Notes: generated from the sequence alone by a model not told the origin. Counted from the first letter of the stretch, positions 34,552 through 51,986 are shown. The stretch is 64,000 nucleotides of DNA from Phycisphaerae bacterium (GCA_012729395.1 JAAYDF010000229.1:299-64298); one strand, 5' to 3'. Made by a program: numbers and translations.

Positions 34552-34594
34552 GCGACGCCCCATGAGTCTCCATGACCTACCGTCCGACATGAGT

Positions 34595-34628
34595 AGGATA
34601 GCAAAGCTAACCTGAAGCCTGCGTGAAG
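34595..34628 (-). promoter_or_regulatory. OmpR-type direct-repeat box and -10 element upstream of the regulator (autoregulation)
   Basis: Minus strand CTTCAC-N5-CTTCAG-GTT, 8 nt, TATCCT. Confidence 0.65.
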
Positions 34629-34904: not shown

Positions 34905-34941
34905 AAAAGGGATCCGCGCCCGTTGACGAGCGAGGATCCCT
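34905..34941 (-). terminator. intrinsic terminator after the PEP-CTERM gene
   Basis: Minus strand AGGGATCC-TCGCTCG...CGGGCG-CGGATCCC followed by TTTT. Confidence 0.6.
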
Positions 34942-35005
34942 CAGAGGGTTACGACGAGAGGCGGATAGTCAACGCCTCATTGTTGATTCAGAAACCAGGT
35001 CACGG

Positions 35006-35785
35006 TCAGGCTGCCCGGCGACGCCGACGGGCCACCACCATTCCGCCCAGTGCTAACAGGCAGATGGACGCCGGCTCGGGGACAATCACGAACGCGCTGG
35101 TTCCGCTGGCTTGGTCACCCGGGCTGAGAATGAACTCGAACTCGCTTTCCATCATGTAAACCGTCGTGCCCAGATCGCTCCAACCCAGAGCGGGCAGCCG
35201 CTCAGTCATGCCCTGCCCAAAATCCGTGCTGAATTGCGCAACAAGGCTCGCAAAAGCGGTATTCGTCCACACTACAGGGTGCGTACCGTAACGCGCCTGG
35301 TAGAGCTTCTGATTCGGGAAGGTGCCGGCCGAAGTCAGTGAAGCGTTGGCCGGGCTACCCGCCCCGTCGGTCAGCGTCAGCGAAGCGGTAGCCCGGGCTT
35401 CCGCGTTCGGTATCCCATCGAACACCAACCGAGCCGCCTTGATGCTCACATACACCGGGTCGGTCATGCTACTGTTGGTCACCGCAAATCGCAGGTCAAC
35501 CTGGGGGTCAGCGTCGAACACCACACCCAGATCGCTGAAGACGGCCAGTTCCTGGCCCTCGTCTGCCATCACCAACCCCTGGATCGCCCACGGCAGCACT
35601 CCGCCAAAGCTCGCGACAGGAAACACCTCCGAGAAGGTGTCCGTATGCCCGCCACATGTAGCCGTGACCTCAATGATGCTGGCCGTGGCCGGGGACGCTC
35701 CACCCAACGCGGCCCCCGTGCAGACCAACACGCCCACAGCCGCCAACGCAACCCACCGCAACTGTGCAGACAATCCGTGAACCAT
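35006..35785 (-). CDS. PEP-CTERM surface protein
   Basis: Signal peptide; VPEPASICLLALGGMVVARRRRR; AAGGAGG RBS before ATG 35785. Confidence 0.9.
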   Translation of the reverse strand: MVHGLSAQLRWVALAAVGVLVCTGAALGGASPATASIIEVTATCGGHTDTFSEVFPVASFGGVLPWAIQGLVMADEGQELAVFSDLGVVFDADPQVDLRFAVTNSSMTDPVYVSIKAARLVFDGIPNAEARATASLTLTDGAGSPANASLTSAGTFPNQKLYQARYGTHPVVWTNTAFASLVAQFSTDFGQGMTERLPALGWSDLGTTVYMMESEFEFILSPGDQASGTSAFVIVPEPASICLLALGGMVVARRRRRAA

Positions 35786-36174
35786 GGAAACCCTCCTTAT
35801 GGTACCTCCCGAGCCCGCTCTATGTGCCCGGTCTTGACTTGATGCCACCCTCCAGCCGCGGCAACCCACCGCGATCTGCGAAGGCTATGTGTCTGGAAAG
35901 GCTGCTTGCTAGGCAGGGCCTTTCGCCTCCTTATCCGGCGAGTCTATCCGATGACGCATTGGATTGCAAGAGAAACAACGATATTCGTATCAGAGATCTT
36001 CTCGCGTCCGTCCATCCGCCTGGTTCATCCCCTGGCGCACATAACACATTGCGATACAATATCTTATGGAATCATAGACTCCTGTCATCCCTCGATCGAG
36101 GCTCGTCACGGCGACAAATCTACCTAAACATGTCCTCTTTTTCGGTCATCCAGAAACCCAGCCTGGAGCTTCAG

Positions 36175-38385
36175 CTATTCCTTTTCGCCTACCGCAAACC
36201 AAGTCGATTTGAGAACCGAGTAATCGAGGATATTCGCAACGCCATCCCCGTTGATATCCCCGATTCCCGCGATGCCCCAATGCGTCTTGAGCAGTGAGTA
36301 ATCGAGCACGTTCACCGAGTTGGATCCGTTGAGATCGCCGCCAAGCAGCACGAAGTCGATCGTTCCCTGCCCTTCCTCCGACAATGCCCCCTCCTGCCTT
36401 CGTCGCAAATGCCAGGCGGTCTTCGCACTCAATGCCGCGATGCCTGCCGGCACGTCCGTCAGAACGTAGGAGCCGCTGGCTACCTCTTCGTGGTTGGTGA
36501 AGTCGACACTGATCGTCCACGACTTCAGCACACCGCCCCCCTCGCCGCTGGCAACGAAGACCACGTCCCGCACGAAGCCGTAATCCACAGAGGAGTAGGT
36601 CGCCAGCCGCACCGTACCGGCCATCTGCCGGTCAAAACACAACACGCCGGCCAGCTCGGCGTTGTTCCCGGCACGGTCCCTCGCCATCCCTTGGATCATC
36701 CATTCGCCCGTCTCCGTATCCTCGTCGATGTTCACAACATAGTTGAACTGCCCCGCGGGATTCTCCCCCGAGTACGTAACCGGCAACGTGAGGTTCCCCT
36801 TGCCCGCCGACACGACAGGCGGCCCCTCCAGGCCGGCCAACAGATCAGCCGTCGTCACGGCAACCCGCACCTCGCCCTGGTGGGTCAAATGTGCGCAAGC
36901 CAACACATCGACCCCCACCCCGCCCTGCTCCTGCGTGGCCGCCAACGCGATCGTCGGCGGCGTGCCATCGACCACAATCGCCTGGCTATCCACCTTCCGA
37001 GGCAGAACCGTCAACCCCCATGTGTCCGCGAACATCGTGGTCCGCGTCAATCCGGGGTCCGGCGCAGGATCGGGACGGAAAACGAGCCGTGTCGTCCCCT
37101 CGCCTGTCGCAACCAAGCTGATCACCGCCGTCGTGGCGTCTTCTTGCGTCCCCAACTCGCCGGATTGCAGATCCACCCCGACCGCCATATCCAGGTCACC
37201 CTCCTCTTTGAGCACGCTGTAGATGACCTCGTTCCAGGGTGGAGCACCGGGAGCAACGTTCACGTCGCCGGGCGCCGTCGAGAAATGCGATGAACTGAAC
37301 GCCAAAAACGCCTGCAAGCCCGTGACCCGCTGAGCCAGGTTCAGGGCATCCAGATCCACAACGACCTGATCGCCCGGACGCACGTGGGCGGGATCTCCCT
37401 GCACGTTGAACCGTAATGTGTTGTGCTCCCAGGTCAGCCCTGCCTGCTGTGCGATCCAGCCCCCGGATGGGAACAGCATGATGCCCCCCCCGGCCGAGCC
37501 AAACATCGGAGCCGCGTAGGGTTGCCCGGTGAAACGAGCGATATAGGTGTTGATGCCCGCCAGCTTGTACGATCCGCCGTCCACAATGAAGGCCGGTCCG
37601 CCCGAGTCCCCGAAACCATAGGTCGTCTCGATCGCGTTTCCCAAGGTCAAATCGCCCAGGATGTTGGTGGCCTCGTCAGGACCGTCGAAATCGAAGACGA
37701 ACACCTCCGAAAACCCTCGGCCCTCGTCATCCAAAAAAGACACGTCGGCCACGTTTCGGCCCCATCGCTTGACGTATCCGTTTTCCATGAACCACGGGTG
37801 AAACCCAATATCCCCCCATCCGCTACGCCCATACCCCACGAACGTCAGCACGTCGCCCTGGGTCATTGGGCGGGCGAGGATGTCATAGATCGGCACGCCC
37901 TCCGGAATCGGTTCCTCCAACGTGAGCACCGCCAAATCGTCGTTGAGTGCCGGGCGAGAGAATCCGGAGAAATCCGGGTGAAGCTGGATCTCGCTCACGC
38001 CGAGCGTGTGCGTCAAGTCCCCGCCGAAGTTCAACGTGAACGTGACCTCCTCAGGAAGGTCGTCCGCGATGCCGTCGTTGTCCAAATCGATGACGTGGGC
38101 CGCTGTTAAAACGTGAAACCGGCTGATCGCCACACCCGTCGCCCGGAACGCGCCGTTCACCGCCAAACCGCCAACGCCCCCAAAGGGCGAAGTCACGTCG
38201 TTCGGGTCCACCCGATACGCCGGGTCGTCGGGCGGGGATACCAGATATCCCCCGGCCAGGAGAACCGCTTCCACATCATCCAGCAGAACATCCTCAGCCC
38301 GAAGAGGCTCCTCGCCCCCGGCGATCGCTCCTCCCAGAACACACCATGCGCACAGATACCTCAATACAAAACGTGAGTTGACCAT
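36175..38385 (-). CDS. secreted trypsin-like serine protease with cohesin-like, Ig-like, X-module-like and dockerin-like domains
   Basis: LTAAH, DDLAVL, GDSGGP triad; VRPGDQVVVDL..VTGLQAFLAF cohesin-like; DRAGN Ig; GDLNGSNSVNVLDY...GDINGDGVANILDY duplicated Ca loops. Confidence 0.85.
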   Translation of the reverse strand: MVNSRFVLRYLCAWCVLGGAIAGGEEPLRAEDVLLDDVEAVLLAGGYLVSPPDDPAYRVDPNDVTSPFGGVGGLAVNGAFRATGVAISRFHVLTAAHVIDLDNDGIADDLPEEVTFTLNFGGDLTHTLGVSEIQLHPDFSGFSRPALNDDLAVLTLEEPIPEGVPIYDILARPMTQGDVLTFVGYGRSGWGDIGFHPWFMENGYVKRWGRNVADVSFLDDEGRGFSEVFVFDFDGPDEATNILGDLTLGNAIETTYGFGDSGGPAFIVDGGSYKLAGINTYIARFTGQPYAAPMFGSAGGGIMLFPSGGWIAQQAGLTWEHNTLRFNVQGDPAHVRPGDQVVVDLDALNLAQRVTGLQAFLAFSSSHFSTAPGDVNVAPGAPPWNEVIYSVLKEEGDLDMAVGVDLQSGELGTQEDATTAVISLVATGEGTTRLVFRPDPAPDPGLTRTTMFADTWGLTVLPRKVDSQAIVVDGTPPTIALAATQEQGGVGVDVLACAHLTHQGEVRVAVTTADLLAGLEGPPVVSAGKGNLTLPVTYSGENPAGQFNYVVNIDEDTETGEWMIQGMARDRAGNNAELAGVLCFDRQMAGTVRLATYSSVDYGFVRDVVFVASGEGGGVLKSWTISVDFTNHEEVASGSYVLTDVPAGIAALSAKTAWHLRRRQEGALSEEGQGTIDFVLLGGDLNGSNSVNVLDYSLLKTHWGIAGIGDINGDGVANILDYSVLKSTWFAVGEKE

Positions 38386-38880
38386 CAGGTTAGCGCCTCT
38401 TTGCCCAGCGTTCCGTCGATACCCATCCGCCGGCACGCCCCGCTCACCCAGAATGCGGCTCAGCAGAACGCTCCGAGCAGCCCCCCTTGGAGTGGTGCTC
38501 CGACAGCCCCCATCTTGCTCAGGTTTTTTCTGATCTCTCGATAAGCATACCCGCCCCGGTAACGCTCTGCAAGCCGCCTGGTCGAAATCAGCCCCGTGAG
38601 TGATCCACGAACGATGGCAATCACCGTTTTTCCGGGTTGGCCGCTCCTGAGAGGTGGACCACAAGGTTATCTACCGCAGGGATTTGCCCATCCGACCCGG
38701 CGGCAGCCCCCCCGAACGCCCCCCCTCGACGTGCCGAGAGCTCCTGGTCCTTCGGCTTATCGCTCCCTCCCCGCAGAAGAGACTCTTCGCCCGCCTCTAT
38801 GGACCAACGCTCGGGCGGACAGCACTTCCTTGCCGCCACGAGGATCAGCGGGGGCTCTGGCGAAAACCGGACCCTGGCAC

Positions 38881-38908
38881 TTGACATCGGCGTCTCAAGT
38901 CATACATT
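38881..38908 (+). promoter_or_regulatory. sigma70-type promoter
   Basis: TTGACA-N16-TACATT upstream of the receiver gene. Confidence 0.5.
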
Positions 38909-39093
38909 GAGGCTAGCGCTGGGTTCTGCCCCAACCGGGCTAAACGCGTCGGACCGCCGTGGAGAAAGTAAACGTTACACGCGCCGACAAGCATTCCGGC
39001 CTGGCTCTCGTGCTGACAACTGGATCTGGCAAACACTAACGCAGCTTCGTACGCGGAAGGTCTGAGCGGCCGTCTGATGCAAGGGCCACGCTC

Positions 39094-39570
39094 GTGGATG
39101 ACACGCCGGTCAAAATCGCTTTAGTCAGTCACGACCGCCGACACCGTCGGTTTCTTGCGAAGACTCTCCACTCCCCTCAAGCACTGCAACTGGTCGCGGA
39201 ATTCGAGGGTTTCACGGCTCTTTCCGCGCGCACTCTGGCAACCACTGCGGACCTTGTCGTTCTTTACCTGGCCTCGACCGACTGCCATCGGCAAGTTCCG
39301 ATGCTCGATCTTCTCTGCGATTTATCAGATTGCATGAAGGTGATTCTCGTTGGTGAATGCCAGAATGAGGAGCATGTCGCCGCTCTGCTGCGCACCGGGG
39401 CTCATGGCTATGTGCTGAACGAACGTGCCGACCAGGAATTGCCAACCGCCATCGAGTCTGTGCTTCGTGGTCGTCGTTTCATCTCGATGCCGATCCTCGA
39501 TGCCATGGCTTTCAGGTTCATCGACCGAGAAAACGATACGCCCTCTTGTTCGGACGCTGATTCGACGTGA
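39094..39570 (+). CDS. NarL-like receiver domain without HTH; pseudo-receiver
   Basis: VKIALV...DLVVLY...KVILV...GAHGYVLNE..ELPTAIESVLRGRRFIS; Tyr at the phospho-Asp position, Asn for the conserved Lys. Confidence 0.72.
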   Translation: MDDTPVKIALVSHDRRHRRFLAKTLHSPQALQLVAEFEGFTALSARTLATTADLVVLYLASTDCHRQVPMLDLLCDLSDCMKVILVGECQNEEHVAALLRTGAHGYVLNERADQELPTAIESVLRGRRFISMPILDAMAFRFIDRENDTPSCSDADST

Positions 39571-39853
39571 ATTTGTTCCCAATGCGCCCAGGACTTCTGG
39601 TCGCATTGCACCACGGATGCTCCTGTCCGGGGCCTGGGATCCAGGGCGATGCTGCTGCGCGATGTGCCGCCGGGAGAGACCGAAACCCGCCTGACAACAC
39701 CTCTCATCACGGCCGGCCCCCATTTGTAGGGCCCGATCCCTCTTGCCTGGGTCGGACACAAACGGCCGGAAATCACCGTCCGGCGTACCGCCCAAGGTTC
39801 CGGGCCGCTCGCAGTAGAGAGCCTCACTATTTACGAAAATCAGAAATCTTCGG

Positions 39854-39881
39854 TTGACAGATCACGCCGATCGCGTATACT
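39854..39881 (+). promoter_or_regulatory. strong sigma70-type promoter for the cohesin-dockerin gene run
   Basis: TTGACA-N16-TATACT, ~480 nt upstream of ATG 40366. Confidence 0.6.
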
Positions 39882-40365
39882 GGGGCACGTCGCTGACGCA
39901 GCACAAGGGGAAGCTTCGTCGGCCGATGGCAGCGCGAGGCGATGCCGTCTCCATAGATCGCGTATCCAGCGGTCCGCTCACGAGCCTGGATAGCTCGCGT
40001 CGGACCCACAGGGGAACAGGGGAAGGAGTTGATGGGGTAAAGCACAAATGTGCAGTGGCGACAAAGGGGAAGCAACCACCTTTCCGCCATGGGTCGGGGA
40101 CTTCGAGGGGCTGACATCGTCGCCTCGATGCCGCGCCTTGCTCTCGGCATGATCCACGTCTCGAGCAGGTGCTGCCCCCACCCCACCCTAACTGTCCTCC
40201 CGCAAACGAACCTCGGGTATGCGCTTGCCCCGTGGATTGTCGCCTGCGCGTATCCGCGATGAGCGCGGGCCAGAGCCGCTCTCGCCACGTCGTCGGACTA
40301 GGCCACTAACCGAGGCAGGAAGCGCCTCACGGCCTGATCGAGGCCCTGACAAAGGAGCACGAATC

Positions 40366-43300
40366 ATGAAAGGTGCATTGAATCTGCTGATCATCTTGGC
40401 GATGTGCGCAGGCACGGCCTGGGCGGATACCGTGTCCATTTCGGCCGGGGGCGACAGCACCACGGCGATTCAGACCGCGATCGATGGTGCGTCCGAAGCC
40501 CGGACCATCGTGCTGCAAGCCGGCACGCACGCAGTGTCAAGCCAAGTCAACGTCAACAGGCAAGATATTACCATCCAGGGTGAAGATCCCGCGAACACGC
40601 TCGTCCAGGTGAGCGGTACGGGATATCGCTTCTCGATCGCGGCTGCGGGCGCGGTCATCGAGAATCTGACACTGGAGAAAACCGACAAGACCGGCGTCCA
40701 GAACCTCATCTACATCGGAGCCAGCAACGCAACCATTCGCGGAAACGTGATCTTTGGTCGGTACGTCATGGGCGATCCCGAGGTCAGTCGTGCCCTGGAG
40801 GTGACCTACGGAATCAGCGGGCTGACGATCGAGGAGAACGAAATCTACGCCCTCCGCCAACCCGCCTACATCAACGGCAGCCTGGCTTCACCCACGACGG
40901 GCAACATCACCAGTAACTACGTACACGGTACCAGGGGCTGGGTGATTGCCGGTGCCAACATGACCTTCAGCGGCAACACCTGGGGCAGCGGTGCCGACAC
41001 GAACTACCTGGACATCGCCATCCTGGCCGGAACCGATCCGAGCTACTACACGGACATCCCGGCACTCAGCGCGGCCCATCACGGCGCCGTGTTCGAGGAT
41101 CAACGCGTGAGCCCGGCCACGCTGACCACTGTCTATGTGGACGCCAACGCGGCTCCCGGCGGTGATGGAACGGTCACCAAACCCTATCAGACGATTACCC
41201 CAGCTGTTGCCCGTGTGATGACCGGCGGAACAATCCTCGTCGCGGCGGGCACGTACAACGAAACGGTCAGCGTGAGCAAATCGGTCAGCTTCGTTGGAGC
41301 AGGCTGCGGACAGACCATCTGGCGTGGTAGCGCCATCACCAGCCACTCCCTGAAAATCGTTCGTGACAACACCTCGCCGGCCGATGTCCACGTCGCCATC
41401 ACCGGTTTCTCCTTTGAAACCGAGAACAACCAGACCATTCGAGGCGACTGGAGCACAAGCTACGCCGAGGCACTGACGCTGGATATCCACGACAACTGCT
41501 TCGCACACGTGAACACCAGAAACCCCGGCACGGATTTCGCTCTCTACGTGAACGGCGCCAACCAGACCGCTCGCGACACCGAGGGGGCGATTCGCGTCTA
41601 CAACAACCAGTTTGATGTCGTGACCGGCGGCGTGCTCTTCGAGTATTGCCGTGCGGTGGACCTGCTGGACAACGACTTCCGCGTGACCTTTGAGGGCGTC
41701 ATCTTCAACTACTACGGGAACTCAGGTGCCTGCGGCGAGCAGTTGGTCAAGGGCAACGTGTTTACCCATGTTCCCGTTGAGTGGGCCCTGGCCATGAACA
41801 ACTGGCACGGAACGGGCAACTACACGGTCCTGCCAAGCGCAGTCACGAATAACGAGATCACCGCTACGGGCTTCTCCTACGCGATTCTCTATGGCGTTGC
41901 CGCGTCTCAAAGCCAGGCGCACGATTTCACGATCCAGGACAATGCCCTGCTGAGCGGCACGGTTTTTGTTTGGGGTGATTACGCCAGCCAAATCCTGCTG
42001 AACGCCTCGGGGAACTGGTGGGGCAGCATCGCCAGCCCGGCCGGCCGCATCAACACTGCCGGCAGCGTCGACTACACCCCGTGGCTGGGCGGCGGAGACG
42101 ACACAAGCACCGATCCCGGCTTCCAGGGCAACTTCTCCACCCTCTGGGCATCGGCCGCCAGCCCGCAGACCGGCACGACGGGCCGAATCCAGGAGGCTAT
42201 CAATTCTGTCGACGGCAGTACGGTCAACGTGCTGCCGGGAACCTACGCGGAGAGACTCACGATCAACAAGTCGCTGAACCTCTATGGGCCGCAGAAAGAC
42301 GTCGATCCCACGGCATCCGGGGCGCGCACCAACTCAGCCAATGAGGCAATCGTAACCTGCGCGGGGCTCTCTACTCCCAACCCCGACGTTCTCATCGAAA
42401 TCCCCACCGGGGTCACAGGCGTCGTTATCGACGGCCTCACACTCCAGGGTCACCCCACCAACCCCGTGGCAGACACATCGATTGTGCGTTGCTGGGGCAG
42501 CGACCTCACCGTGTCGAACAACATCATGGACGGCTGGTATGCGGTCATCTTCAAAGGCGGTAACAACCTGACCGTCTCCGACAACCGCGTGACGGTCAAC
42601 AAGGTCGGCGTGGCTTGCCAGCCAGGCACCAGTACTGAGATTACTTTGGCTGGCAACACATTCGTGCCGGGCACCAGCTCGGCAGCCGATTCACAGGCGG
42701 CGTACATGACCGCGGTGACCCATATGACCCTCACCGACAACGTCGCCTCCGGCTTCGGCGGGTCGGCGGTGGCCGGCAGTAATCTCTCCAACGTGCTCAT
42801 CGAGGGCAATGTACTCACCAACTGCCGCGACGGCGTCAGTTTCTGGGGCAGCACCTACGACGTGGTGATCCGTGAGAATGAGCTGAGCGAACACACGCGA
42901 TACGGCATCAACTTCAAGGGGCAGAACCTCGACGTGCTTGACAATCGAATAGCGGATAACGGCAACACCGGCATCAACGTCGAACGGCATGTCATCGATA
43001 CGCTGAACATCCATGTTCATGGAAATGAGATATTCGGAAACGCCAGCTTCGGCTTGAAGGCTGCCGCGAACATCACCGGGGTGGTGGACGCGGAAAACAA
43101 CTGGTGGGGCCACGCTTCGGGTCCATACGACCCCGATGGTTCGGTCGAAGCGGACATCAACAACTGCGCCGACCCAGCCGTCATCAAGAATCCAAATGGG
43201 TTAGGCGACTTGGTCAGTGATGTCCAGGTCGACTACTGCCCATGGCTGCTTGGGCCGACCGCCCCCAACGCACTCTACCTGGTGCCGACAAGCGAAAGCA

Positions 43301-44523
43301 TCTACATCAAACCAGGCGAAAGCGCGATTGTCGATATGAACGTGGCGAATCTTCTTCAGAAGGTGAACGCCTGCCAGGCGATGCTCGGGTACTCGTCCAC
43401 TTACTTCGAGGATCCGACGGCTGGAACGGTTGGACTGCCTGCCTCGGGACCGTGGGATCAGCTTATCTGGGATTCCTGGCTGAATTCAAGCGGAGCACCG
43501 GGTGAGATTGACACGGCCATCGGTGTCAACGCGGCGGGGACCGTGGGCACGGACGCCGACGGCAAGGTGTGCAAGATCACGCTGACCGCGAGGGCCGGCG
43601 TGCAAGGCATCACTCAGATAGTCTTCCGCCCGGACGCGGATCCGGATCCAGGCCTGGTGGCCAGTACTTACCTTTCGGACATGTTGGGCAACCCGGTCTG
43701 GCCGACCAAATTCGACAGCATTGGTATCGTCATCGACGACACGGATCCGGCGGTGGCGGCCCTGACGGCCACTCAGGACCAAGGCGCCGGCGCGGTGGAT
43801 GTGCTGAACTGTGCGGCGACGACCCTGCAGGGCACGGTGGCCATCAGCGTGGGCGCGTCGGATGCCCTGGCCGGTATCGAGGCCGAGCCGGTCGTCACCG
43901 TCACGCAGGGCGGCGACGCACTGACCGTGACCTACGCAGGTGAATCGCCGGCGGGAACGTTCAATTACACCGTGGACATCGAGCCCGACGCGGCCAATGG
44001 CACCTGGACGATCGAGGCGACAGCCACGGATAAGGCCGGCAACGACGCCTCGGTATCCGGGACTCTGTGCGTAGACAAGAACCAGATCACCGGCCAGGTG
44101 GAGTTGGAGTCGCTGGTCGGCGGTCTGACTCGCACGGTGACCTTCGTGGCCACGGGCGGGGTCAAGAAGACCTGGGACATCCCGGTGGTCTTCCCCGCCG
44201 GCAGTGCGGTCGGCACCTTCACGCTGACCGAGGTGCCGGATGGAACCACCGCCCTCAGCGCCAAGACGAACTGGAATCTGCGTCGCAAGGTGGACTGCAG
44301 CCTCGACGGTGACGGCCAAGCTTCGGCCGACTTCATCGGCACCGCCAAGCTGCGCGGCGGGGATATCAACGGCTCCAACTCGATCAACATCCTCGACTAC
44401 TCGGTGATGAAGATCAGTTGGATGGCCACCACCGCTGGCGACATCAACGGCGACGGGGCCACCGCCATGCTCGACTACTCGATCATGAAGAGCAACTGGT
44501 TCGTGGTGGGCGACGCCGAGTGA
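40366..44523 (+). CDS. secreted right-handed beta-helix (pectin-lyase fold) protein with cohesin-like, Ig-like, X-module-like and dockerin-like domains
   Basis: Signal peptide ending AWA; three beta-helix units (TAIQTAID, PYQTITPAV..AGTYNE, IQEAIN..PGTYAE) with NWWG...DYxPW caps; tail IKPGESAIVDMNV...DKAGN...GDINGSNSINILDY...GDINGDG. Confidence 0.85.
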   Translation: MKGALNLLIILAMCAGTAWADTVSISAGGDSTTAIQTAIDGASEARTIVLQAGTHAVSSQVNVNRQDITIQGEDPANTLVQVSGTGYRFSIAAAGAVIENLTLEKTDKTGVQNLIYIGASNATIRGNVIFGRYVMGDPEVSRALEVTYGISGLTIEENEIYALRQPAYINGSLASPTTGNITSNYVHGTRGWVIAGANMTFSGNTWGSGADTNYLDIAILAGTDPSYYTDIPALSAAHHGAVFEDQRVSPATLTTVYVDANAAPGGDGTVTKPYQTITPAVARVMTGGTILVAAGTYNETVSVSKSVSFVGAGCGQTIWRGSAITSHSLKIVRDNTSPADVHVAITGFSFETENNQTIRGDWSTSYAEALTLDIHDNCFAHVNTRNPGTDFALYVNGANQTARDTEGAIRVYNNQFDVVTGGVLFEYCRAVDLLDNDFRVTFEGVIFNYYGNSGACGEQLVKGNVFTHVPVEWALAMNNWHGTGNYTVLPSAVTNNEITATGFSYAILYGVAASQSQAHDFTIQDNALLSGTVFVWGDYASQILLNASGNWWGSIASPAGRINTAGSVDYTPWLGGGDDTSTDPGFQGNFSTLWASAASPQTGTTGRIQEAINSVDGSTVNVLPGTYAERLTINKSLNLYGPQKDVDPTASGARTNSANEAIVTCAGLSTPNPDVLIEIPTGVTGVVIDGLTLQGHPTNPVADTSIVRCWGSDLTVSNNIMDGWYAVIFKGGNNLTVSDNRVTVNKVGVACQPGTSTEITLAGNTFVPGTSSAADSQAAYMTAVTHMTLTDNVASGFGGSAVAGSNLSNVLIEGNVLTNCRDGVSFWGSTYDVVIRENELSEHTRYGINFKGQNLDVLDNRIADNGNTGINVERHVIDTLNIHVHGNEIFGNASFGLKAAANITGVVDAENNWWGHASGPYDPDGSVEADINNCADPAVIKNPNGLGDLVSDVQVDYCPWLLGPTAPNALYLVPTSESIYIKPGESAIVDMNVANLLQKVNACQAMLGYSSTYFEDPTAGTVGLPASGPWDQLIWDSWLNSSGAPGEIDTAIGVNAAGTVGTDADGKVCKITLTARAGVQGITQIVFRPDADPDPGLVASTYLSDMLGNPVWPTKFDSIGIVIDDTDPAVAALTATQDQGAGAVDVLNCAATTLQGTVAISVGASDALAGIEAEPVVTVTQGGDALTVTYAGESPAGTFNYTVDIEPDAANGTWTIEATATDKAGNDASVSGTLCVDKNQITGQVELESLVGGLTRTVTFVATGGVKKTWDIPVVFPAGSAVGTFTLTEVPDGTTALSAKTNWNLRRKVDCSLDGDGQASADFIGTAKLRGGDINGSNSINILDYSVMKISWMATTAGDINGDGATAMLDYSIMKSNWFVVGDAE
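44068..44369 (+). repeat. copy 1 of a 302-bp near-identical repeat encoding the X-module
   Basis: Matches 47929-48230 with 9 mismatches by manual codon alignment. Confidence 0.9.
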
Positions 44524-44730
44524 GCCATCAGCCCGGCGGGCATCGCATTGGAGCCGGCCGGTTGCGTGCCCAAGGAGGGGTAAGCCCGATGGATCGCATG
44601 TGACGTATCGGTTCCGTCGGAATGGACAGGCAGATCCCCCGCATGGGAAACCCTGGCGGCAGCGGGCCGTCACCCCAAGCGGATAGAGCAATGACGGCCG
44701 ACCAGAGGCCCACACGAAGGAGCATGCAAG

Positions 44731-47700
44731 ATGAGACGATCAGGAATGGTATGGCTGACAGCGCTGGCGGTGCTGGTCACCGCGGGCAGCGCATGGGCGG
44801 ACTGGCACACGCTGGTGATCCGCAATGCGACGACCAGCGGCAATCCGCCGGCAATCGTGGACAACACTGACTACGGTGTGCCGGCCAAGGAGTTCATCAT
44901 CGCGGAAGGTGGCCAGAAAGCCGCATGGAGCACATCGGTGCTCGACGGTTTCACTGTTGGGGAGATTGCCCAACTGGCGGTCACCCGCTTCGACGATCGA
45001 ACGCGATTTGCGCCGACGTCCGGCGGCTATAGCGCCCCCTACTTCAACATCTGGATCACCGATGGCTCGGGACAATACGCGGTGATCGCTAACGAGCCGT
45101 CGGACTCGGTATTTCAGCCCCTTTACAGCAACGGCTACGATCTGACCTGGGCGGATATCTCCGACAAGCCGGTCAAAGTATACGAAAACAGCGACATAAG
45201 CTGGCTGCCCAACAACGGCGTAGGTCTGACTTTTGACGATATCAAGGACTTCGTGATCCAGGCTCCGTCGCCCGCCGAACTGGCCGCGGGCTGGCCCGGC
45301 CTGGGGACAGGCGCTCCGCGAGAACTAGGCACCAACATCGCCTACGGCTTCAACTGGATCCTTGGCGACACCCTCAGCAACTATGTGTCCGGCGATCCCG
45401 GTTACATTCTTGCCCAGCCCGGCGCCGGCGCGTTCGTGACGACGAACTACACCGTCACCCCGCAGATTCTTGCCGCCGGCAAGCCGGAGTTCAGCGCTCC
45501 GCACGGCACGGGCGATAACCCGTTCGGCTATGACTGGGACTCGCGGGCTCCGGACACGGCTGCCGGCGCCCCCACCGGTTACGGATCGTCGAGCTTCTAC
45601 GCCAACGTCGATCACAGCGACCCCGATCCTGACAGCCGCTACGTCACGCTGCGCATCGGGCTGCGCGACCTCTTCGGCCGCGAGGTGACCATCGGTGAGC
45701 TGACTGCCCTGAGCTACTGGACCAACAAACCCACCGACCAGACAGCCATGGATTATCGCGTCACCATGTACACGACTTTCGACGACAGCGACAACCAGAA
45801 TGGCGCGTCCTGGTACCGCAGCCGGCTTCAAGCCAGCCCGCACGCTGCCGCCAATCTCTCCGCCCCCGCCGATACGTGGAACCAGTGGACCACCGGCGGA
45901 GCAACCAACGAATTCCGCTTCTACGAGTCCACCAGCAAGCGCAGCTACTCGAACATGGCCTGGACGGACATCACGGACGGCGAAACCACATGGGACTACT
46001 CCGGTGAAGAAATCATGATGATCGATATCGGGCTCGGCACAAGAAGCAGCAGTCCAGCCTCCTGGTGGACCGGTGAAAGCCGGCTTGACGGCCTCCGCAT
46101 CGAACTGGCCAACGGCCAGATCGCCGACATCGACTTGGCCGCGGGCACGGCCTGGCAAGTCGCCACCGTGCACGGCCACGATCAGTTCACCATCAGCGAC
46201 GGCGGCTCTACCCTCCTCTACCACGCTCAGCCGCGCAACAGCAAGGAGTGGTACTGGTTCAACAACAACGGATCGGCCCCCGACGTCCTGGCGACCGGCG
46301 GGTTCGGGCCCAACGGCTGGCGAGACGGCTCGCGCACCTTTGCCGTATCCGACGTCGCGGTGGGCAAGAAGCTCAATGAGATCAAGCTGGCCTTCGAGTA
46401 CAACAACACCCTCGGCGGCTATACGACCATGAACTTCTTCCTTACCGACGGCAACGGCAAGTTCGGTATCTTTGCCCCCACTTCTCTCGGGATCCAGGCC
46501 ATCTCCGAGCAGGTCGTGGTCGATGGCTGGACACGGATCACCTTGGATCTGACCAAAACGAGCATTGCCGACTCCACAGCCGTCGCCATCTATGAGCACA
46601 ACGGATTCACCGATGTTTACGGCAACCCCTATACCACCATGACCTGGGGGGACATCAAGGAGTACACCATCGCCGGCATGTACGACTACCAGCGCAGCCC
46701 GGCCCACGGCTGGAGCAAATGGGGCAAGATGTTCGACCCAATCAACATCGCCGGCGAGGATGCGGTGGTCAACGGCTACGGCCTTGCCTTGATCTGGGGC
46801 GATACCGTCGGTAACACCGCCTACGCCACCCAACAGCGACAGATCCGCAACGTGCAGGTCTCGTTCGACACCGTCGACTACCTCGGCACCTTCGCCGATG
46901 CCCAGATCCGCGACATTCTCGAGCTCAACGTCCAGCCTGACAGCCTGTACGTCAAGCCCAGCGAGAGCGTTACACTCAATATGGACGTCAAGAACCTGCA
47001 GCAGATGGTCAACGGTTGCCAGGCGCTCATTGGCTACGACTCCGAGTACTTCCCGGCTGCCGGCACGGTCGCCCCGGGCGGCGGCGGAGTATGGGAAGAA
47101 CTCATCTATGAAGTCTGGCGAGATATCGCGGGCGAGTTGGACACGGCCATCGGCGTCCAGCTGACCGGAGGTGCGGGTACGGATGACGACGGCACAGTGG
47201 CGATCATCGCCCTGACCGCCGGCACCAAGGAAGGCACTACCCAAATGGTCTTCCGTGCTGACGGCGAATACGGCTACGCCACCATGCTCAGCGACTTGAA
47301 CGCCGAGCCCGTATGGCCGACGAAGATCGACAGTCAGACCATCGTCATCGACGGGACGGACCCGACGGTCGACACGTTCTCCGCAGACCCACTGTGCACC
47401 AAGACCACCACCACGCTGACCTTCACGGTCTCGGACGCTCTGGCCGGCGTGGACTATGTGGATGTTTACGTGGACGGTGCCAAGGTCGCCGAGGATGTCG
47501 CCAGCCCGTACGCGCTGGACATGAGCGGCTACGCGACCGACTGTTACGACGTGACCCTCAAGGTGGTCGACAAGGCCGGCAACGAAGCCGACAGCTCGGC
47601 GGTCGAGGTCTGCGTGGACAAAACCGCCCCGGCAATCAGCAACATCGCGGCCGAGCAGGATGGCGAAGACGTGCTCTGCCCGGCGGTGGCGGTGCAGGGC

Positions 47701-48387
47701 GTCGTGAACATTTACGTGGACGTCACCGACGCCGGCTGTGCCGATCTCGTGGTCCCGCCCGCGCTGACTGTGGACGGTATCGGCGCGGCGGTCTATGTGG
47801 ACGTGAGCGGCGATACCTACCACTATCAGGTGACGATCAGTGGCGCGACCGCCAACGGTGCTCATACCATCACCGTCGAGGCCGCGGATGCTCTGGGTAA
47901 CACCGCGTCCGACAATGCCCAGGCTATCTGCGTGGACAAGAACCAGATCACCGGCCAGGTGGAGTTGGAGTCGCTGGTCGGCGGTCTGACTCGCACGGTG
48001 ACCTTCGTGGCCACAGGCGGGGTCAAGAAGACCTGGGACATCCCGGTGGTCTTCCCGGCCGACAGTGCGGTCGGCACGTTCACGCTGACCGAGGTGCCGG
48101 ATGGAACCACCGCCCTCAGCGCCAAGACGAACTGGAACCTGCGTCGCAAGGTGGCCTGCAGCCTCGACGGTGACGGTCAAGCTTCGGCCGACTTCACCGG
48201 CACCGCCAAGCTGCGCGGCGGGGATATCAAGCCTGACAACTACATCAACATCCTTGATTACTCGGTCTTGAAGAGCAACTACTTGTCGTCGAACGACGTG
48301 GCCGACATCGACGGCGACGGCACCGTCGGTTTGGTGGACTACTCCCTAATGCGGTCCAACTGGTTCCAGCCAGGAGACGCGGAGTAG
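44731..48387 (+). CDS. secreted protein: unknown Trp-rich beta-sandwich-like cargo domains plus cohesin-like, two Ig-like, X-module-like and dockerin-like domains
   Basis: Signal peptide ending AWA; internally related N-terminal units (YAVI..VYEN..GFNWILGDT versus FGIF..IYEH..GLALIWGDT); tail VKPSESVTLNMDV...DKAGN...DALGN...GDIKPDNYINILDY...ADIDGDG. Confidence 0.82.
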   Translation: MRRSGMVWLTALAVLVTAGSAWADWHTLVIRNATTSGNPPAIVDNTDYGVPAKEFIIAEGGQKAAWSTSVLDGFTVGEIAQLAVTRFDDRTRFAPTSGGYSAPYFNIWITDGSGQYAVIANEPSDSVFQPLYSNGYDLTWADISDKPVKVYENSDISWLPNNGVGLTFDDIKDFVIQAPSPAELAAGWPGLGTGAPRELGTNIAYGFNWILGDTLSNYVSGDPGYILAQPGAGAFVTTNYTVTPQILAAGKPEFSAPHGTGDNPFGYDWDSRAPDTAAGAPTGYGSSSFYANVDHSDPDPDSRYVTLRIGLRDLFGREVTIGELTALSYWTNKPTDQTAMDYRVTMYTTFDDSDNQNGASWYRSRLQASPHAAANLSAPADTWNQWTTGGATNEFRFYESTSKRSYSNMAWTDITDGETTWDYSGEEIMMIDIGLGTRSSSPASWWTGESRLDGLRIELANGQIADIDLAAGTAWQVATVHGHDQFTISDGGSTLLYHAQPRNSKEWYWFNNNGSAPDVLATGGFGPNGWRDGSRTFAVSDVAVGKKLNEIKLAFEYNNTLGGYTTMNFFLTDGNGKFGIFAPTSLGIQAISEQVVVDGWTRITLDLTKTSIADSTAVAIYEHNGFTDVYGNPYTTMTWGDIKEYTIAGMYDYQRSPAHGWSKWGKMFDPINIAGEDAVVNGYGLALIWGDTVGNTAYATQQRQIRNVQVSFDTVDYLGTFADAQIRDILELNVQPDSLYVKPSESVTLNMDVKNLQQMVNGCQALIGYDSEYFPAAGTVAPGGGGVWEELIYEVWRDIAGELDTAIGVQLTGGAGTDDDGTVAIIALTAGTKEGTTQMVFRADGEYGYATMLSDLNAEPVWPTKIDSQTIVIDGTDPTVDTFSADPLCTKTTTTLTFTVSDALAGVDYVDVYVDGAKVAEDVASPYALDMSGYATDCYDVTLKVVDKAGNEADSSAVEVCVDKTAPAISNIAAEQDGEDVLCPAVAVQGVVNIYVDVTDAGCADLVVPPALTVDGIGAAVYVDVSGDTYHYQVTISGATANGAHTITVEAADALGNTASDNAQAICVDKNQITGQVELESLVGGLTRTVTFVATGGVKKTWDIPVVFPADSAVGTFTLTEVPDGTTALSAKTNWNLRRKVACSLDGDGQASADFTGTAKLRGGDIKPDNYINILDYSVLKSNYLSSNDVADIDGDGTVGLVDYSLMRSNWFQPGDAE
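47929..48230 (+). repeat. copy 2 of the 302-bp near-identical repeat encoding the X-module
   Basis: Matches 44068-44369. Confidence 0.9.
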
Positions 48388-48545
48388 TCCGTGTGAAGGC
48401 AGAAGGGTCTTGATGGCAGTCGGCAGGCGCCGGCGGGACGACCGCGTCCCGCCGGCGCTGCGTGGCACCGATACCACACCGACACACGGCGGCATCCCGC
48501 CACGGGCCCAACGGAAGCGACCCGTGGCCTGGAGAGGAGGAGGTT

Positions 48546-49874
48546 ATGCGGCAACAAGCACTCAGGCCGGCCTTGCTCGCACTCGGACCTGCGCTGGCGG
48601 TCGTTCTGGTAGCACTGGGTCAGCCCACGCCTGCGATGGGCAACCCGAACACCCTCGCGCTCGAGGTGTCTTGCGAATCGTTGTTTGTCCAGCCGGGCGA
48701 GCCAGTGGTGCTCGGTCTCGACGTCTCCAACCTCGCTCAGATGATCAACGGCTGCCAAGCACTCATCGGGTACAACTCGACCTACTTGACCAGCCCCCAC
48801 AGCGTGGCTCCCGGCGGCGGGTTCTGGACCGAACTGATCTACGAAAGCTGGCACGCACCGGGCGAGCTCGACACCGCCATCGGGCTGCAACTCGAAGGCG
48901 GTCCGACGGGAACCCAGGCCGACGCAACCATAGCCACCATCACCCTGACGGCCGGAACCACGGAAGGAGCCACCTTCCTCGTCTTTCGCTCCGACACCGA
49001 CGACAGATACGCCACCATGCTCAGCGACCTGAACGCCGAGCCCGTATGGCCCTTCAAAATCGATAGCCAACCCATCGTCATCGACGGTACGCCCCCTGTG
49101 CTGGTCGACCTGACCGCGACCCAGAACGGAGTTGATGTCCTTGACTGCGCCAATCCAACCGTCCAGGGCTTGGTGAGTATCACGGTGGACGCGGCCGACG
49201 TCCTGGCCGGCCTGGAGGGTATCCCGAGCATCGACATCACCGGCCCTGAAACCCTCGCCGCCACCCTCACCGACGACGAGGGGCCGAGCTTCGGATGGGA
49301 GGTCGTCATCGGTCCGACTACCCCCCAGGGTACATACACCATCGCCATCACCGCAACGGATCGCGCGGGCAACGAAACCACCGCGACAGGCACACTGTGC
49401 GTGGACCCTAACCAGATCACCGGCACAGTACAGATGAGCACGTTATCGGGTGCAGCATACGGCTTTGACCGCGAAGTGGTGTTCAAGGCGACGGATACCG
49501 GGAATACCGTGCTCCAAACATGGACAGTCACCGTGACCTTCACGAACAACCCGGTAACGAGAACCGCCGCCGGCTCCTATGTACTGACCCTGGTGCCCGG
49601 CAGCACGGCGAGGCTTAGCGCCAAGACGGACTGGAGCCTGCGGAAGCGGATACCCGTGACTCTGGACACCTATGGCCAAGGGGTGGCGAACTTCACCCTA
49701 ACCAGCGGCGATCTCGACGGCTCCAACACCGCGAACATCCTGGATTACTCGATACTCAAGGCGAACTGGATGACCGCCGGCCCAGCCGGCGATTACAACG
49801 GGGACAGCCAAGTCATGCTGCTGGACTATTCGCTGCTGAAAAATGCCTGGTTCACAACCGGCGATCCCGAGTGA
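48546..49874 (+). CDS. secreted cargo-less cohesin-Ig-X-dockerin protein (adaptor or spacer)
   Basis: GGAGG RBS; signal peptide directly followed by VQPGEPVVLGLDV cohesin-like domain, DRAGN Ig, GDLDGSNTANILDY...GDYNGDSQVMLLDY. Confidence 0.85.
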   Translation: MRQQALRPALLALGPALAVVLVALGQPTPAMGNPNTLALEVSCESLFVQPGEPVVLGLDVSNLAQMINGCQALIGYNSTYLTSPHSVAPGGGFWTELIYESWHAPGELDTAIGLQLEGGPTGTQADATIATITLTAGTTEGATFLVFRSDTDDRYATMLSDLNAEPVWPFKIDSQPIVIDGTPPVLVDLTATQNGVDVLDCANPTVQGLVSITVDAADVLAGLEGIPSIDITGPETLAATLTDDEGPSFGWEVVIGPTTPQGTYTIAITATDRAGNETTATGTLCVDPNQITGTVQMSTLSGAAYGFDREVVFKATDTGNTVLQTWTVTVTFTNNPVTRTAAGSYVLTLVPGSTARLSAKTDWSLRKRIPVTLDTYGQGVANFTLTSGDLDGSNTANILDYSILKANWMTAGPAGDYNGDSQVMLLDYSLLKNAWFTTGDPE

Positions 49875-49946
49875 TCGGACGCTGCCGATCCGAAACGCGG
49901 AACCGCCAGAAAGCAGAGATCATCTTATTCGGGGGCCGGTTTTTGC

Positions 49947-49976
49947 TTGATTTCGATTAGCATATTCCCTTACAAT
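49947..49976 (+). promoter_or_regulatory. sigma70-type promoter
   Basis: TTGATT-N18-TACAAT upstream of ATG 50057. Confidence 0.5.
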
Positions 49977-50056
49977 GCAGTACGTTCCCGTCGGTGGAGT
50001 TGCCCGTGCAGTCAACGAGCGGGAAGGCGGAAAAGCATCACTCTCGGAGGACAGCC

Positions 50057-50737
50057 ATGGAAAGTCGCACATACCTCGCATGTGGTCTGCTTGTTCTAGG
50101 AATGCTCATGCCGGTCCCGGCGTGGGGGCATGATATGGTTCAGCCCCCATGGCGAGGCGATGAAGGCACAACCTATCAGGAGTGGCGGTTTGACACCGAC
50201 GCCAACCCCGCTTTGCCCGAGGTGATCTCAAATTCATACGGCTCTGCCATGGCATCCATCGTCCTTGGCGACTATGCCTCCGGGTGGCAGGTGCAACTCC
50301 CCAGCCTCGGCGATCAGATCGGATACTGGGATCTCGGCGGGGATCGAGGCAACGGCGGCGGGAGCATCCTGATCGATGTCGACAATCGGCCGCTGGCTCT
50401 CGAGTGCAAAGAGGTTTGGGTGCAGGTGACGTACTTCCGTGACATGTCCCAAGCTCCAACAGTCACCGTACCCGGCGCAGCCTACGTCACCGGGCAAACC
50501 CTGCTGGTCGAGCACGTACTCACCGGCGGAGATTGGTACCTGGATCAGTCCATCTGGCGGATCGAGCCCAACCCGGATCACGAGCAAATCCTCATCACCA
50601 GCGACCCGACGTGGGGATCGGTGATTGACCAGATCGTGATCGACACGATCTGTATCCCTGAGCCGGCTACCATGGGACTGTTCCTGGTCGGATCCTGGGC
50701 GATGATCGCCCGACGGCGCAGGGCCGCTCGCGTCTGA
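50057..50737 (+). CDS. PEP-CTERM surface protein
   Basis: GGAGG RBS, signal peptide, IPEPATMGLFLVGSWAMIARRRR. Confidence 0.9.
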   Translation: MESRTYLACGLLVLGMLMPVPAWGHDMVQPPWRGDEGTTYQEWRFDTDANPALPEVISNSYGSAMASIVLGDYASGWQVQLPSLGDQIGYWDLGGDRGNGGGSILIDVDNRPLALECKEVWVQVTYFRDMSQAPTVTVPGAAYVTGQTLLVEHVLTGGDWYLDQSIWRIEPNPDHEQILITSDPTWGSVIDQIVIDTICIPEPATMGLFLVGSWAMIARRRRAARV

Positions 50738-50906
50738 GTCGCTTGCCGTCCTGACACGCGAACCTCGTCGTATGCTGCCACTCCCGGGGCTGATGCCGCT
50801 CGCGGCCTCACACGGCTGCGGGAATGGCTTGGGATGTCCCCGCATTCGCGCTACTCCCGCTGCCCGCGATCGGTTCGTACGACGGCCCCTGGGGGAGATT
50901 CCGAGT

Positions 50907-51986
50907 ATGTGCCACCGGCGAACACGCTGGATCGCTCTCGCACTTTGGCTTGTCTGCGCAGCTGGGGTGCAGGCATCCTCATATCAGGTCGAAATCCTCG
51001 GCTCGCTGGAGGGCGGCTTCGCCCGGGCGCGGGCCATCAACGCTCAAGGGCTCATCGTGGGCGAGGCACTGACGCCGGCGAGCGTTGACCACGGGTTCCT
51101 CTGCTCGGGCTTGGGCCAGTTCGCCGACTTGGGCACGCTGGGCGGTACTCGCAGCCGGGCCCTCGCCATCAACGCTGCCGGCCTGATTGCCGGCTGGGCA
51201 CAGAACATCGCGGGCCAGTCCAGACCCGTCCTCTGGGATGAGCACGGAATCCATGAGCTGCCGACGCTTGGCGGAGCTGCCGGCACAGCCTGGGCGATCA
51301 GTGATCTCGGGCACGCGGTCGGCAACTCCTTCACCTCCCCGGGCATCTACCACGCAACCCTCTGGCAAGACGGCGCCGCTTACGACCTAGGCACCTTGGG
51401 CGGCGACTACAGCATCGCCTACGGCATCAACAACCACGACTGGATCGTGGGCAGTTCCGACGACACTCAAGGCCGGGAGCGGGCTGCGCTTTGGCTCGAC
51501 GGTGACGTTCACCTGCTCGACGGCTTGCCGGGGGCCACATGGAGTGCTGCACGCGGGATCAATGACCACGGGCAAGTCATCCTCTGGAGCAATACCACCG
51601 GCGGAGCGTCTCGTGCCGCCCTGTGGGAGGCCGGCATGGTGACTGATCTGGGAACCCTGGGCGGCATCGAAAGCTGGGCTTACGGGCTGAATAATCTCGG
51701 GCACGTGGTCGGGTGGGCCGAGCTCCCGGCGGGCAACTACCATGCCTTTGTCCACGATGGCGGCGAGATGATCGACTTGGGCACACTCGGGGGCATGTTC
51801 AGCTCAGCCTACGGCATCAACGACGAGGGGGTGATCGTCGGGTATGCACAGGACGCAAGCGGGCAATGGCAGGCCGTCCGCTGGGTACCGGTACCCGAGC
51901 CCGCCACGTTATCCCTGGCCCTCACCGCCCTCGCCTGCTTCGTTGCCAGCATCCGACGTGCCCCTGCGCACGATCGGCCGGCGTAG
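50907..51986 (+). CDS. HAF-repeat extracellular beta-propeller protein with PEP-CTERM tail
   Basis: Repeated DLGTLGG..S.A.GIN..G.IVG...HAF units; VPEPATLSLAL. Confidence 0.92.
   Translation: MCHRRTRWIALALWLVCAAGVQASSYQVEILGSLEGGFARARAINAQGLIVGEALTPASVDHGFLCSGLGQFADLGTLGGTRSRALAINAAGLIAGWAQNIAGQSRPVLWDEHGIHELPTLGGAAGTAWAISDLGHAVGNSFTSPGIYHATLWQDGAAYDLGTLGGDYSIAYGINNHDWIVGSSDDTQGRERAALWLDGDVHLLDGLPGATWSAARGINDHGQVILWSNTTGGASRAALWEAGMVTDLGTLGGIESWAYGLNNLGHVVGWAELPAGNYHAFVHDGGEMIDLGTLGGMFSSAYGINDEGVIVGYAQDASGQWQAVRWVPVPEPATLSLALTALACFVASIRRAPAHDRPA

Follow-up and report, generated by a model that had tools for sequence, protein, structure and literature searches.

Can cohesins and dockerins assemble extracellular proteins without a scaffoldin? 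Cohesin-dockerin assembly is understood almost wholly from the cellulosomes of Gram-positive bacteria, in which the sockets (cohesins) sit on scaffoldins and the plugs (dockerins) on enzymes; in the scaffoldin CipA, the C-terminal X module and dockerin (X-Doc) bind a different, type II, class of cohesin on anchoring proteins. According to the accessible text of its report, array, enzyme-linked immunosorbent (ELISA) and pull-down assays on R. bromii Amy4 showed that its cohesin recognises the dockerin of the same protein, multimerisation was proposed, and self-recognising pairs are, per its authors, known elsewhere (PMC4611034). Similarly, monovalent adaptor scaffoldins such as R. flavefaciens ScaC are described as carrying one cohesin and one dockerin, and Paenibacillus guangzhouensis as having 28 of them, often with a glycoside hydrolase (PMC11557425). 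In the accessible account of the 'planctosome' of freshwater Phycisphaerae (Nemodlikiaceae), cohesins and dockerins are tied to peptidases and not to cellulose, and the model comprises a 2,210-amino-acid lamin-tail-domain anchor with a cohesin, an adaptor made of a dockerin, a HYR domain and a cohesin, and dockerin-bearing M12B/M14 peptidases (Andrei et al. 2019; PMC6461901). Here we analyse a 64,000-nt stretch of bacterial DNA (the window) from a genome, G000, of 5.74 Mb in 370 contigs and 99.55% complete. The window holds four genes for predicted secreted proteins that end in one shared cassette of cohesin, immunoglobulin-like (Ig) domain, X module and dockerin (Coh-Ig-X-Doc); the cassette is unique to these genes within the genome, is conserved as a unit in a wider protein family and is clustered in tandem arrays.

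The original prediction, made from the window alone, held that the four genes share a tail of ~400 amino acids, and this is borne out at a level well above chance. The full open reading frames (ORFs) extend over 36175-38664 (-), 40219-44523, 44731-48387 and 48462-49874 (+), and the C-terminal ~410 residues common to the four proteins are 41-48% identical to the first sequence, with 59% mean column identity in a 515-column alignment. The likely starts at 38385, 40366 and 48546 are Met codons inside longer ORFs, each followed by a hydrophobic, signal-peptide-like stretch (signal peptides were judged by eye from such stretches). Gene 1 (36175..38385, -) encodes a signal peptide, a trypsin-like serine protease (Trypsin, 33.3 bits) in which the His, Asp and Ser motifs are visible as TAAHV, DDLAVL and GDSGGP, and the cassette (36178-37419, -). 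Gene 2 (40366..44523, +) places two right-handed beta-helix regions (Beta_helix/NosD/DUF1565; Beta_helix 57.9 bits) between its signal peptide and its cassette (43270-44520, +). In gene 3 (44731..48387, +) the signal peptide is followed by a cargo of ~730 residues and by a cassette with an extra Ig domain (46915-48384, +; Big_13 and Big_7 matches). This cargo has no family match in Pfam or NCBIfam, and an Atlas search, whose best clusters (0.89-0.90) are unnamed, gave beyond these only weak leads to glycan binding (0.81 or below), from which we assign no identity. Finally, gene 4 (48546..49874, +) has no cargo, and its signal peptide leads into the cohesin (48636-49091), Ig domain (49092-49409), X module (49410-49700) and dockerin (49701-49871), all on the + strand. 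The motifs quoted in the original prediction are present in the tails: two invariant Cys residues bracket the Ig domain, the GDxNG...LDYS loops are duplicated, and the end reads WFxxGDxE, first quoted as WFxxG(D/E)xE. Each chain stops a few residues past the dockerin. Searching the whole genome with the tails by tblastn returned four full copies only, the remaining matches being partial and at E of 0.007 or above.

What are the modules of the tail? We modelled the cargo-less gene 4 protein (mean predicted local distance difference test score, pLDDT, 89.9; predicted template-modelling score, pTM, 0.74). In the model, residues 31-182 have a cohesin fold, which matches 2vo8_A with Z 16.6 (root-mean-square deviation, rmsd, 2.3; 133 of 135 residues aligned) and 6kgc_A with Z 16.1, and which Foldseek places at template-modelling (TM) scores of 0.77-0.80 to single type I cohesins. 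In the VIA structural search, every one of the top 21 rows for these residues is a cohesin; types I, II and III all occur among them, and their Z values lie so near one another that no type can be assigned. Residues 182-288 are modelled as an Ig-like sandwich, and Pfam gives weak Ig matches in the tails. Residues 288-441 superpose on the X-Doc of CipA (5g5d_B, Z 13.1, rmsd 2.7, 137 residues aligned), and the modelled beta X module packs directly against the dockerin, as in the type II CipA-like X-Doc. For the gene 4 model as a whole, the best Foldseek matches are the multimodular C. thermocellum structures 4fl4_C and 3kcp_A (E 1e-11 to 2e-10), so the likeness to the Coh-X-Doc end of CipA to which the original prediction had pointed stands.

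Sequence comparison recovers the cohesin less readily. The Pfam cohesin model, PF00963, has no match at E<=1 in the four proteins or in the whole genome, and a sequence profile of the four cohesin modules searched against PDB sequences reached only chance level (E 1.7 and 3.7), so a fold search was needed. We regard cohesin homology as supported despite the Pfam miss, because the fold matches are joined by a transitive link: the homologue P0019, ~60% identical in the cohesin module (read by eye from the alignment), passes PF00963 (27.3 vs 24.1 bits), and its match falls on the stretch aligned with the cohesin module of the four tails. The predicted cohesin-like module is therefore upheld by fold and by homologue, though not by PF00963 in any of the four. 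The predicted dockerin is found directly, since Dockerin_1 (PF00404) exceeds its 22.9-bit cut-off in genes 1, 2 and 4 (26.3, 27.1 and 25.0 bits) and reaches 16.4 bits in gene 3. Numbered by the EF-hand convention customary for dockerin calcium loops, seven of the eight loops read from the sequences have D, N or S at positions 1, 3 and 5 and D at position 12, and the gene 4 model has dockerin helices at residues 398-406 and 425-433. The assignment of the tail to cohesin, Ig domain, X module and dockerin is therefore correct, the fold establishing the identity of the modules.

Sequence analysis of the genome and of a wider family shows how closely these modules keep together. Twenty homologues were collected, and family hidden Markov models (HMMs) from an alignment of 23 family sequences were run over all six-frame ORFs of the genome. 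The cohesin HMM matches the four genes at E 5.4e-71 to 5.5e-55 and its next best ORF at E 1.1; the corresponding values are E 1.7e-38 to 6.4e-29 and 0.56 for the Ig HMM, and E 4.2e-41 to 8.6e-32 and 1.5 for the X module HMM. Likewise, the tail-dockerin HMM scores 88-93 bits in the four genes and 24.7 bits in the next best ORF. By these searches, the four genes hold the only cohesins detectable in the genome, and their dockerins form a separate class. Beyond the genome, 1.84 billion cluster representatives were searched exhaustively; 910 proteins reached E<=1e-3, 471 reached E<=1e-10 and 209 clusters reached E<=1e-30. From this search and the earlier collection of homologues, 162 listed family proteins were scanned with the module HMMs. 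Exactly Coh-Ig-X-Doc is read in 124 of the 162 and a cohesin together with X-Doc in 139; 134 have one cohesin with X-Doc and five have two cohesins with one X-Doc, while eight have two to nine Ig domains. The dockerin ends within five residues of the C-terminus in 156 of the 159 proteins that have one. The 17 members without a cohesin comprise 14 short fragments and three long, Met-started proteins with the plug (X-Doc) only.

Ahead of the cassette lie 0 to 3,389 residues of cargo (median 402), and 30 of the 139 are cargo-less. Cargo of 150 residues or more is present in 106 members, and a census of the 57 shortest of these, at E<=1e-5, gave Beta_helix in 13, Trypsin and NosD in four each, DUF1565 in three, HYR in two, and Glucodextran_B and DUF11 in one each; neither a glycoside-hydrolase catalytic family nor PF00963 was matched in any of the 57 at this threshold. 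Within the phylum, at least 4 of 401 sampled genomes, G000 included, match the cassette at E<=1e-20 (four candidates were scored per genome), and by this sampling the cassette appears to be rare among the reference genomes of its phylum. One fragment (L001), from a Hydrogenedentota metagenome-assembled genome, carries Ig-X-Doc ends.

How might such proteins work? We propose that cargo is followed by a cassette that would act as socket (cohesin), spacer (Ig domain), X module and plug (dockerin). The dockerin, stiffened by the X module, would dock onto a cohesin borne by a different cassette protein, in trans and dependent on calcium, and the protease, beta-helix, unassigned-cargo and cargo-less linker proteins would join head-to-tail into mixed extracellular oligomers or chains with no multi-cohesin scaffoldin. 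Conserved PEP-CTERM neighbours, described below, would tie the assembly to the cell surface. Socket-plug binding, its occurrence in trans and the tethering to the surface by PEP-CTERM proteins are the steps that we infer. The central claim, that tail dockerins bind tail cohesins in trans and build mixed oligomers or chains, we put at even chances, because the modules are exclusive to the same genes and conserved as a unit, because plug-only, two-socket and anchored-socket relatives exist, because spacer length varies and because Amy4 offers a precedent. Judged from their module order, the two-cohesin, plug-only and multi-Ig variants would make sense only if binding occurs in trans. We can also imagine the cassette as a portable self-assembly tag native to diderm bacteria of the Planctomycetes-Verrucomicrobia-Chlamydiae (PVC) group, by which cargo joins a scaffoldin-free, calcium-dependent chain or lattice with two-cohesin branch points, plug-only caps and PEP-CTERM tethers. 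We offer this extension tentatively, and incline somewhat against it.

A single complex prediction bears on socket-plug binding. The gene 4 cohesin (residues 31-182) was paired with the gene 4 X-Doc (289-442), both with the family alignment, and reached an interaction prediction score from aligned errors (ipSAE) of 0.70 (runs 0.71, 0.65 and 0.70) vs 0.01 for the best of three controls. The same mark is reached by 58 of 80 solved complexes and by 2 of 110 mismatched pairs, a calibration that is rough only, since our own alignment was used here. At least 96% of contacts recur between runs, and partner pLDDT is 94. In the predicted interface, two dockerin helices (390-408 and 428-438), with the near-invariant Tyr401 and Tyr428 of the LDYS motifs, face one side of the cohesin (68-71, 98-117 and 154-166).

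The surroundings of cassette genes suggest how an assembly could reach the cell surface. Tandem cassette genes number four in the window, two in the relative G037 (L021), three in L026 and four in L027, so that arrays of two, three and four occur at three independent loci besides the window; L025 has at least one cassette gene and its contig ends there. Directly after gene 4 comes a gene for a small secreted, carbohydrate-binding-module (CBM)-like beta-jelly-roll protein with a PEP-CTERM signal (50057..50737, in ORF 49994-50737, +; PEP_CTERM 23.6 vs 16 bits), whose model (pLDDT 74.4) matches CBM-like jelly-rolls at middling Z of 9.3-8.0. Homologues are encoded immediately after cassette genes in L025, in L026 and, at two places, in L021, and we regard the window protein as a candidate cell-surface partner of the cassette proteins. 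A HAF-repeat protein with a PEP-CTERM-like end follows (50772..51986, +; HAF_rpt 184 bits) and is also found near cassette genes in L021 and L025. The original prediction was right that none of the four proteins has a C-terminal anchor, and it overlooked the PEP-CTERM proteins conserved beside their genes. We rejected the idea that PEP-CTERM proteins near the cluster hide an anchoring cohesin: hhalign probabilities were 0.1 for the protein at 35006 and 0.8 for that at 49994, and no cohesin is among the top 50 fold matches of the latter. The PEP-CTERM protein at 35006-35869 has no counterpart in four related loci.

Related loci add two variants of these parts. L026 9773-11974 (+) encodes a cargo-less signal peptide-Coh-Ig-Coh-Ig-X-Doc protein, with two sockets and one plug, which is a potential branch point. 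In L021, the homologue of the 49994-50737 protein at 354-1157 (-) has a Cys-type dockerin-like repeat where the others have PEP-CTERM, which suggests that the two ends are interchangeable tethers of the same domain. Upstream of the cluster, window positions 27029-34031 (-) encode a tripartite exporter, made up of an outer-membrane factor (OEP), a MacB-type permease, an ABC ATPase and an HlyD-family adaptor, and then a HAMP histidine kinase; in the four related loci we found no link between this exporter and the cassette genes.

A genome search for an anchored cohesin had been suggested together with the original prediction. None is found in G000 by the family HMM or PF00963, though divergent cohesins can escape sequence searches; one is found in a relative, G030, of the same order and another family. 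There, distant cousins of the cohesin and X-Doc modules are spread over many proteins: a subtilisin-like protease lacks a cohesin and ends in X-Doc, and a protein built as signal peptide-cohesin-IPTL-CTERM (TIGR04174, 22.8 vs 20.5 bits) is a cell-anchored socket. We also observed 11 cohesin-profile matches in G030, and N-terminal cohesins with long arrays of Cys-rich repeats behind them, at which the assembly breaks; the loci are L014 4522-5427 (-), L019 2061-4685 (-), L015, L016, L020 and L024. The set looks like a fuller 'planctosome'. Three 'X-Doc-only' ORFs of G030 that lie beside cohesin ORFs are cut by contig ends, and we did not count them as an argument from split genes.

The cassette dockerins are a small part of the dockerins in the genome. 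Dockerin_1 has 59 matches, of which 56 were mapped, to 55 ORFs; 54 matches in 53 ORFs lie outside the cluster and were sorted by eye into 32 of the form 'VNIFDLVxVRNxLN', 12 Cys-containing of the form 'DVDLxDF...C...' and 10 others. The 32 proteins are of unrelated sizes and end in a near-identical double 'GDVNGDGxVNIFDLVxVRNxLN' dockerin (e.g., C218:336-494 and C109:71376-71534), which sits 4-25 residues from the stop and is internal in three. This tight conservation points to one shared receptor or sorting machinery. The 12 Cys-type dockerin-like ends, 'PGDFDxDGDVDLxDF..C..ADLDxDGDVD' (e.g., C124:27832-27981 and C350:13839-14000), show a weak likeness to the NCBIfam GC-type dockerin. G000 also has two exosortases and many PEP-CTERM proteins, and it has no FtsZ match in a search that matched FtsZ in 13 of 14 control genomes; together with the abundant dockerins, we take these features to fit a planctomycete, without being proof of one.

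Several points weigh against assembly in trans. Cohesin and dockerin are a textbook pair with many solved complexes, and the pass of the complex prediction therefore shows likeness to those complexes and says nothing on specificity; as a model, it would neither separate cis from trans nor exclude other dockerin partners. In solved type II X-Doc complexes the X module contributes contacts to the cohesin; the listed interface here comprises dockerin residues 390-438 and none of the X module (289-385), residues that are unlisted being uncertain. Interface conservation, tried as a test of binding, gave no clear enrichment: among 23 members the top-residue frequency at the interface vs the rest is 0.67 vs 0.64 in the cohesin and 0.70 vs 0.61 in the dockerin, and invariant positions among the four paralogues number 6/25 vs 33/127 and 9/21 vs 10/36, respectively. 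The gene 3 dockerin falls below the Pfam cut-off, and its first calcium loop has K at ligand position 3 and P at position 4. A fixed 1:1 ratio of socket to plug is seen in monovalent adaptor scaffoldins as well. A compact monomer, perhaps closed in cis, would be in keeping with the pTM of 0.74 over its four domains. Finally, most dockerins of the clade, to go by sequence searches, evidently work without a detectable cohesin, and a dockerin need not have a cohesin partner. The original interpretation is supported in part: the head-to-tail chaining at its core agrees with the exclusivity of the modules, their near 1:1 ratio, the plug-only and two-socket relatives and the complex prediction.

Could the four proteins be monovalent adaptors? 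Their cohesins would then recruit the genome's other dockerins, the 32 'NIFDLV' or the 12 Cys-type, and their X-Doc would plug into a separate, unrecognised anchor, as ScaC-type adaptors switch types. Such adaptors are defined by having a single cohesin and a single dockerin, and in the accessible text many of the 28 in P. guangzhouensis carry an enzyme (PMC11557425). The 54 mapped dockerin matches outside the cluster share the genome with no other cohesin, the tail dockerin differs in sequence class from the others, which a type switch would require, and one homologue of the jelly-roll neighbour ends in a Cys-type dockerin-like repeat instead of PEP-CTERM. However, when we compared 41 genomes (G000 and 40 relatives of the same genus, family or order, with cohesin absence judged by sequence search), Dockerin_1 matched in all 41, 3 to 99 times each, whereas our cohesin profile matched in 9 and PF00963 in 12. 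The 27 genomes that match neither still hold 3-92 dockerin matches (median 26), the highest count being that of the same-genus genome G001 (91% complete), which has no cohesin match. Ordinary dockerins kept without detectable cohesins argue against the four cohesins as a general receptor. Moreover, G000 offers no second cohesin class for X-Doc to bind, and the nearest 50 fold matches of the modelled PEP-CTERM neighbour, a CBM-like jelly-roll, include no cohesin. We consider the adaptor account unlikely.

The abundance of dockerins without cohesins in the clade also means that non-cohesin partners must be common, and this lends support to the idea that the two modules are not partners at all: they would be stalk domains or would attach in a calcium-dependent manner to envelope glycans or to the PEP-CTERM neighbours, and the proteins would be monomeric surface or secreted enzymes. 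The predicted interface, with no special conservation, and the failure of the Pfam cohesin model to recognise any of the four proteins or of the 57 relatives are compatible with this idea. It has to contend with the fact that 139 of 162 proteins have inherited the two modules together in one cassette, with the exclusivity of both module classes to the same four genes, with the anchored cohesin that lies next to X-Doc enzymes in G030 and with the passing complex prediction, and we find it distinctly unlikely. A further alternative is an intramolecular clasp, in which X-Doc would fold back on its own cohesin to give a closed, stable or auto-inhibited tail and no polymer. Strict 1:1 linkage in one chain (124 of 162 are exactly Coh-Ig-X-Doc), a monomer pTM that suggests fixed domain packing, and a complex prediction equally compatible with binding in cis favour the clasp, but spacer length varies from one Ig domain to the two to nine found in 8 of 162, two cohesins per dockerin occur in 5 of 162, plug-only and socket-only relatives exist, and the inter-domain linkers are very short, which would make fold-back difficult. 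We judge the clasp very unlikely, and retain assembly in trans as our proposal.

Some further features of the locus deserve mention. Over 300 nt of their X modules, gene 2 (44063..44362, +) and gene 3 (47924..48223, +) are 96% identical, a likeness also visible in the protein alignment and indicative of recent gene conversion between the paralogues. In one study, contigs from two RNA-labelled runs, which at 95-99% likeness come from a related strain, pass from 44212 to 46884 with a stretch of 33 other letters at the join, leaving out the end of gene 2 and the gene 3 cargo; the join may be a strain variant or an assembly artefact across the repeated tails. The ~2 kb between the divergent genes 1 and 2 (38386-40365) contain no ORF that shows the strong GC bias at third codon positions seen in the genes on either side, and an Rfam scan of 34000-52000 found no family. 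Contigs from RNA-labelled libraries cover 38985-39372 and 39537-39803 within this gap, which may be regulatory, hold an unrecognised gene or belong to long leaders. Each of the four genes is likewise covered in part by contigs from four RNA-labelled libraries (28 of 29 contigs in X16 are at least 99% alike); as these contigs also cover the gene-free gap and the libraries may contain DNA, this coverage is not equivalent to transcription. The locus is present in bioreactor and sludge metagenomes of several studies.

What do these observations mean for cohesin-dockerin biology? The self-assembly reading is plausible and has precedents. If binding in trans is true, the cassette would let mixed enzyme chains form naturally outside the cell with no scaffold, and would be a ready modular tag for protein engineering. 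If the cassette is in addition a portable tag, some 'orphan dockerin' genomes would hold unrecognised cohesins. Irrespective of either, the finding gives testable content to the 'planctosome' idea, and it shows that Pfam-based censuses under-count cohesins, none of the four and 0 of 57 relatives having been recognised.

We end with a comparison of the cassette proteins and the systems nearest to them. The C-terminal Coh-X-DocII of CipA (C. (Acetivibrio) thermocellum; 3kcp, 4fl4 and 5g5d) has the same order, a cohesin and then a beta X module packed on a C-terminal dockerin. 3kcp_A aligns with Z 15.8 over 278/303 residues, although the domain arrangement differs (whole-chain rmsd ~19-20 Å). CipA has many cohesins and a CBM, whereas each window protein has one cohesin and an inserted, Cys-bracketed Ig domain; unlike in CipA, a protease or beta-helix cargo is fused on the same chain and the genome has no second cohesin class. 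More generally, a cellulosome has a multi-cohesin scaffoldin, whereas the window proteins have one cohesin each and two occur in only 5 of 162 family members; its cargo is plant-cell-wall glycoside hydrolases, whereas here it is trypsin-like, beta-helix, unassigned or none; and its cell-anchored cohesin is not detected in G000 and is present in the relative G030.

Closer in layout are the self-recognising and adaptor proteins, and since both are already in print, self-chaining is not the novelty that the original prediction implied. Like the window proteins, Amy4 is an extracellular enzyme with both a cohesin and a C-terminal dockerin. It differs in being a single protein with GH13 cargo from a Firmicute with sortase-anchored Sca2, its cohesin also binds dockerins of other enzymes, and the accessible part of the report mentions neither an X module nor an Ig spacer (PMC4611034). 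The four window proteins share with monovalent adaptors the secreted layout of exactly one cohesin and one dockerin; adaptors sit in systems with multi-cohesin primary scaffoldins, S-layer homology (SLH) or sortase anchors and glycoside hydrolases, whereas here there is no multi-cohesin scaffoldin, no glycoside-hydrolase cargo (0/57), and the neighbours are of diderm type with PEP-CTERM. With the planctosome the family has HYR-bearing members in common (2/57; P0021 reads Coh-Ig-X-Doc). The planctosome main text describes no shared Coh-Ig-X-Doc cassette and no self-association, and its supplementary figures 13-14 may show related architecture (PMC6461901). Our search of the literature on planctomycete or self-recognising cohesin-dockerin systems, which was not phrased for the cassette and mostly did not cover subscription journals, found no description of the Coh-Ig-X-Doc cassette family. 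Set beside these systems, what is new is a cassette of four modules that is conserved and portable and that marks a large family, for the most part unannotated, with Pfam-invisible cohesins, a diderm and probably planctomycete setting, and a cargo that is not cellulolytic.

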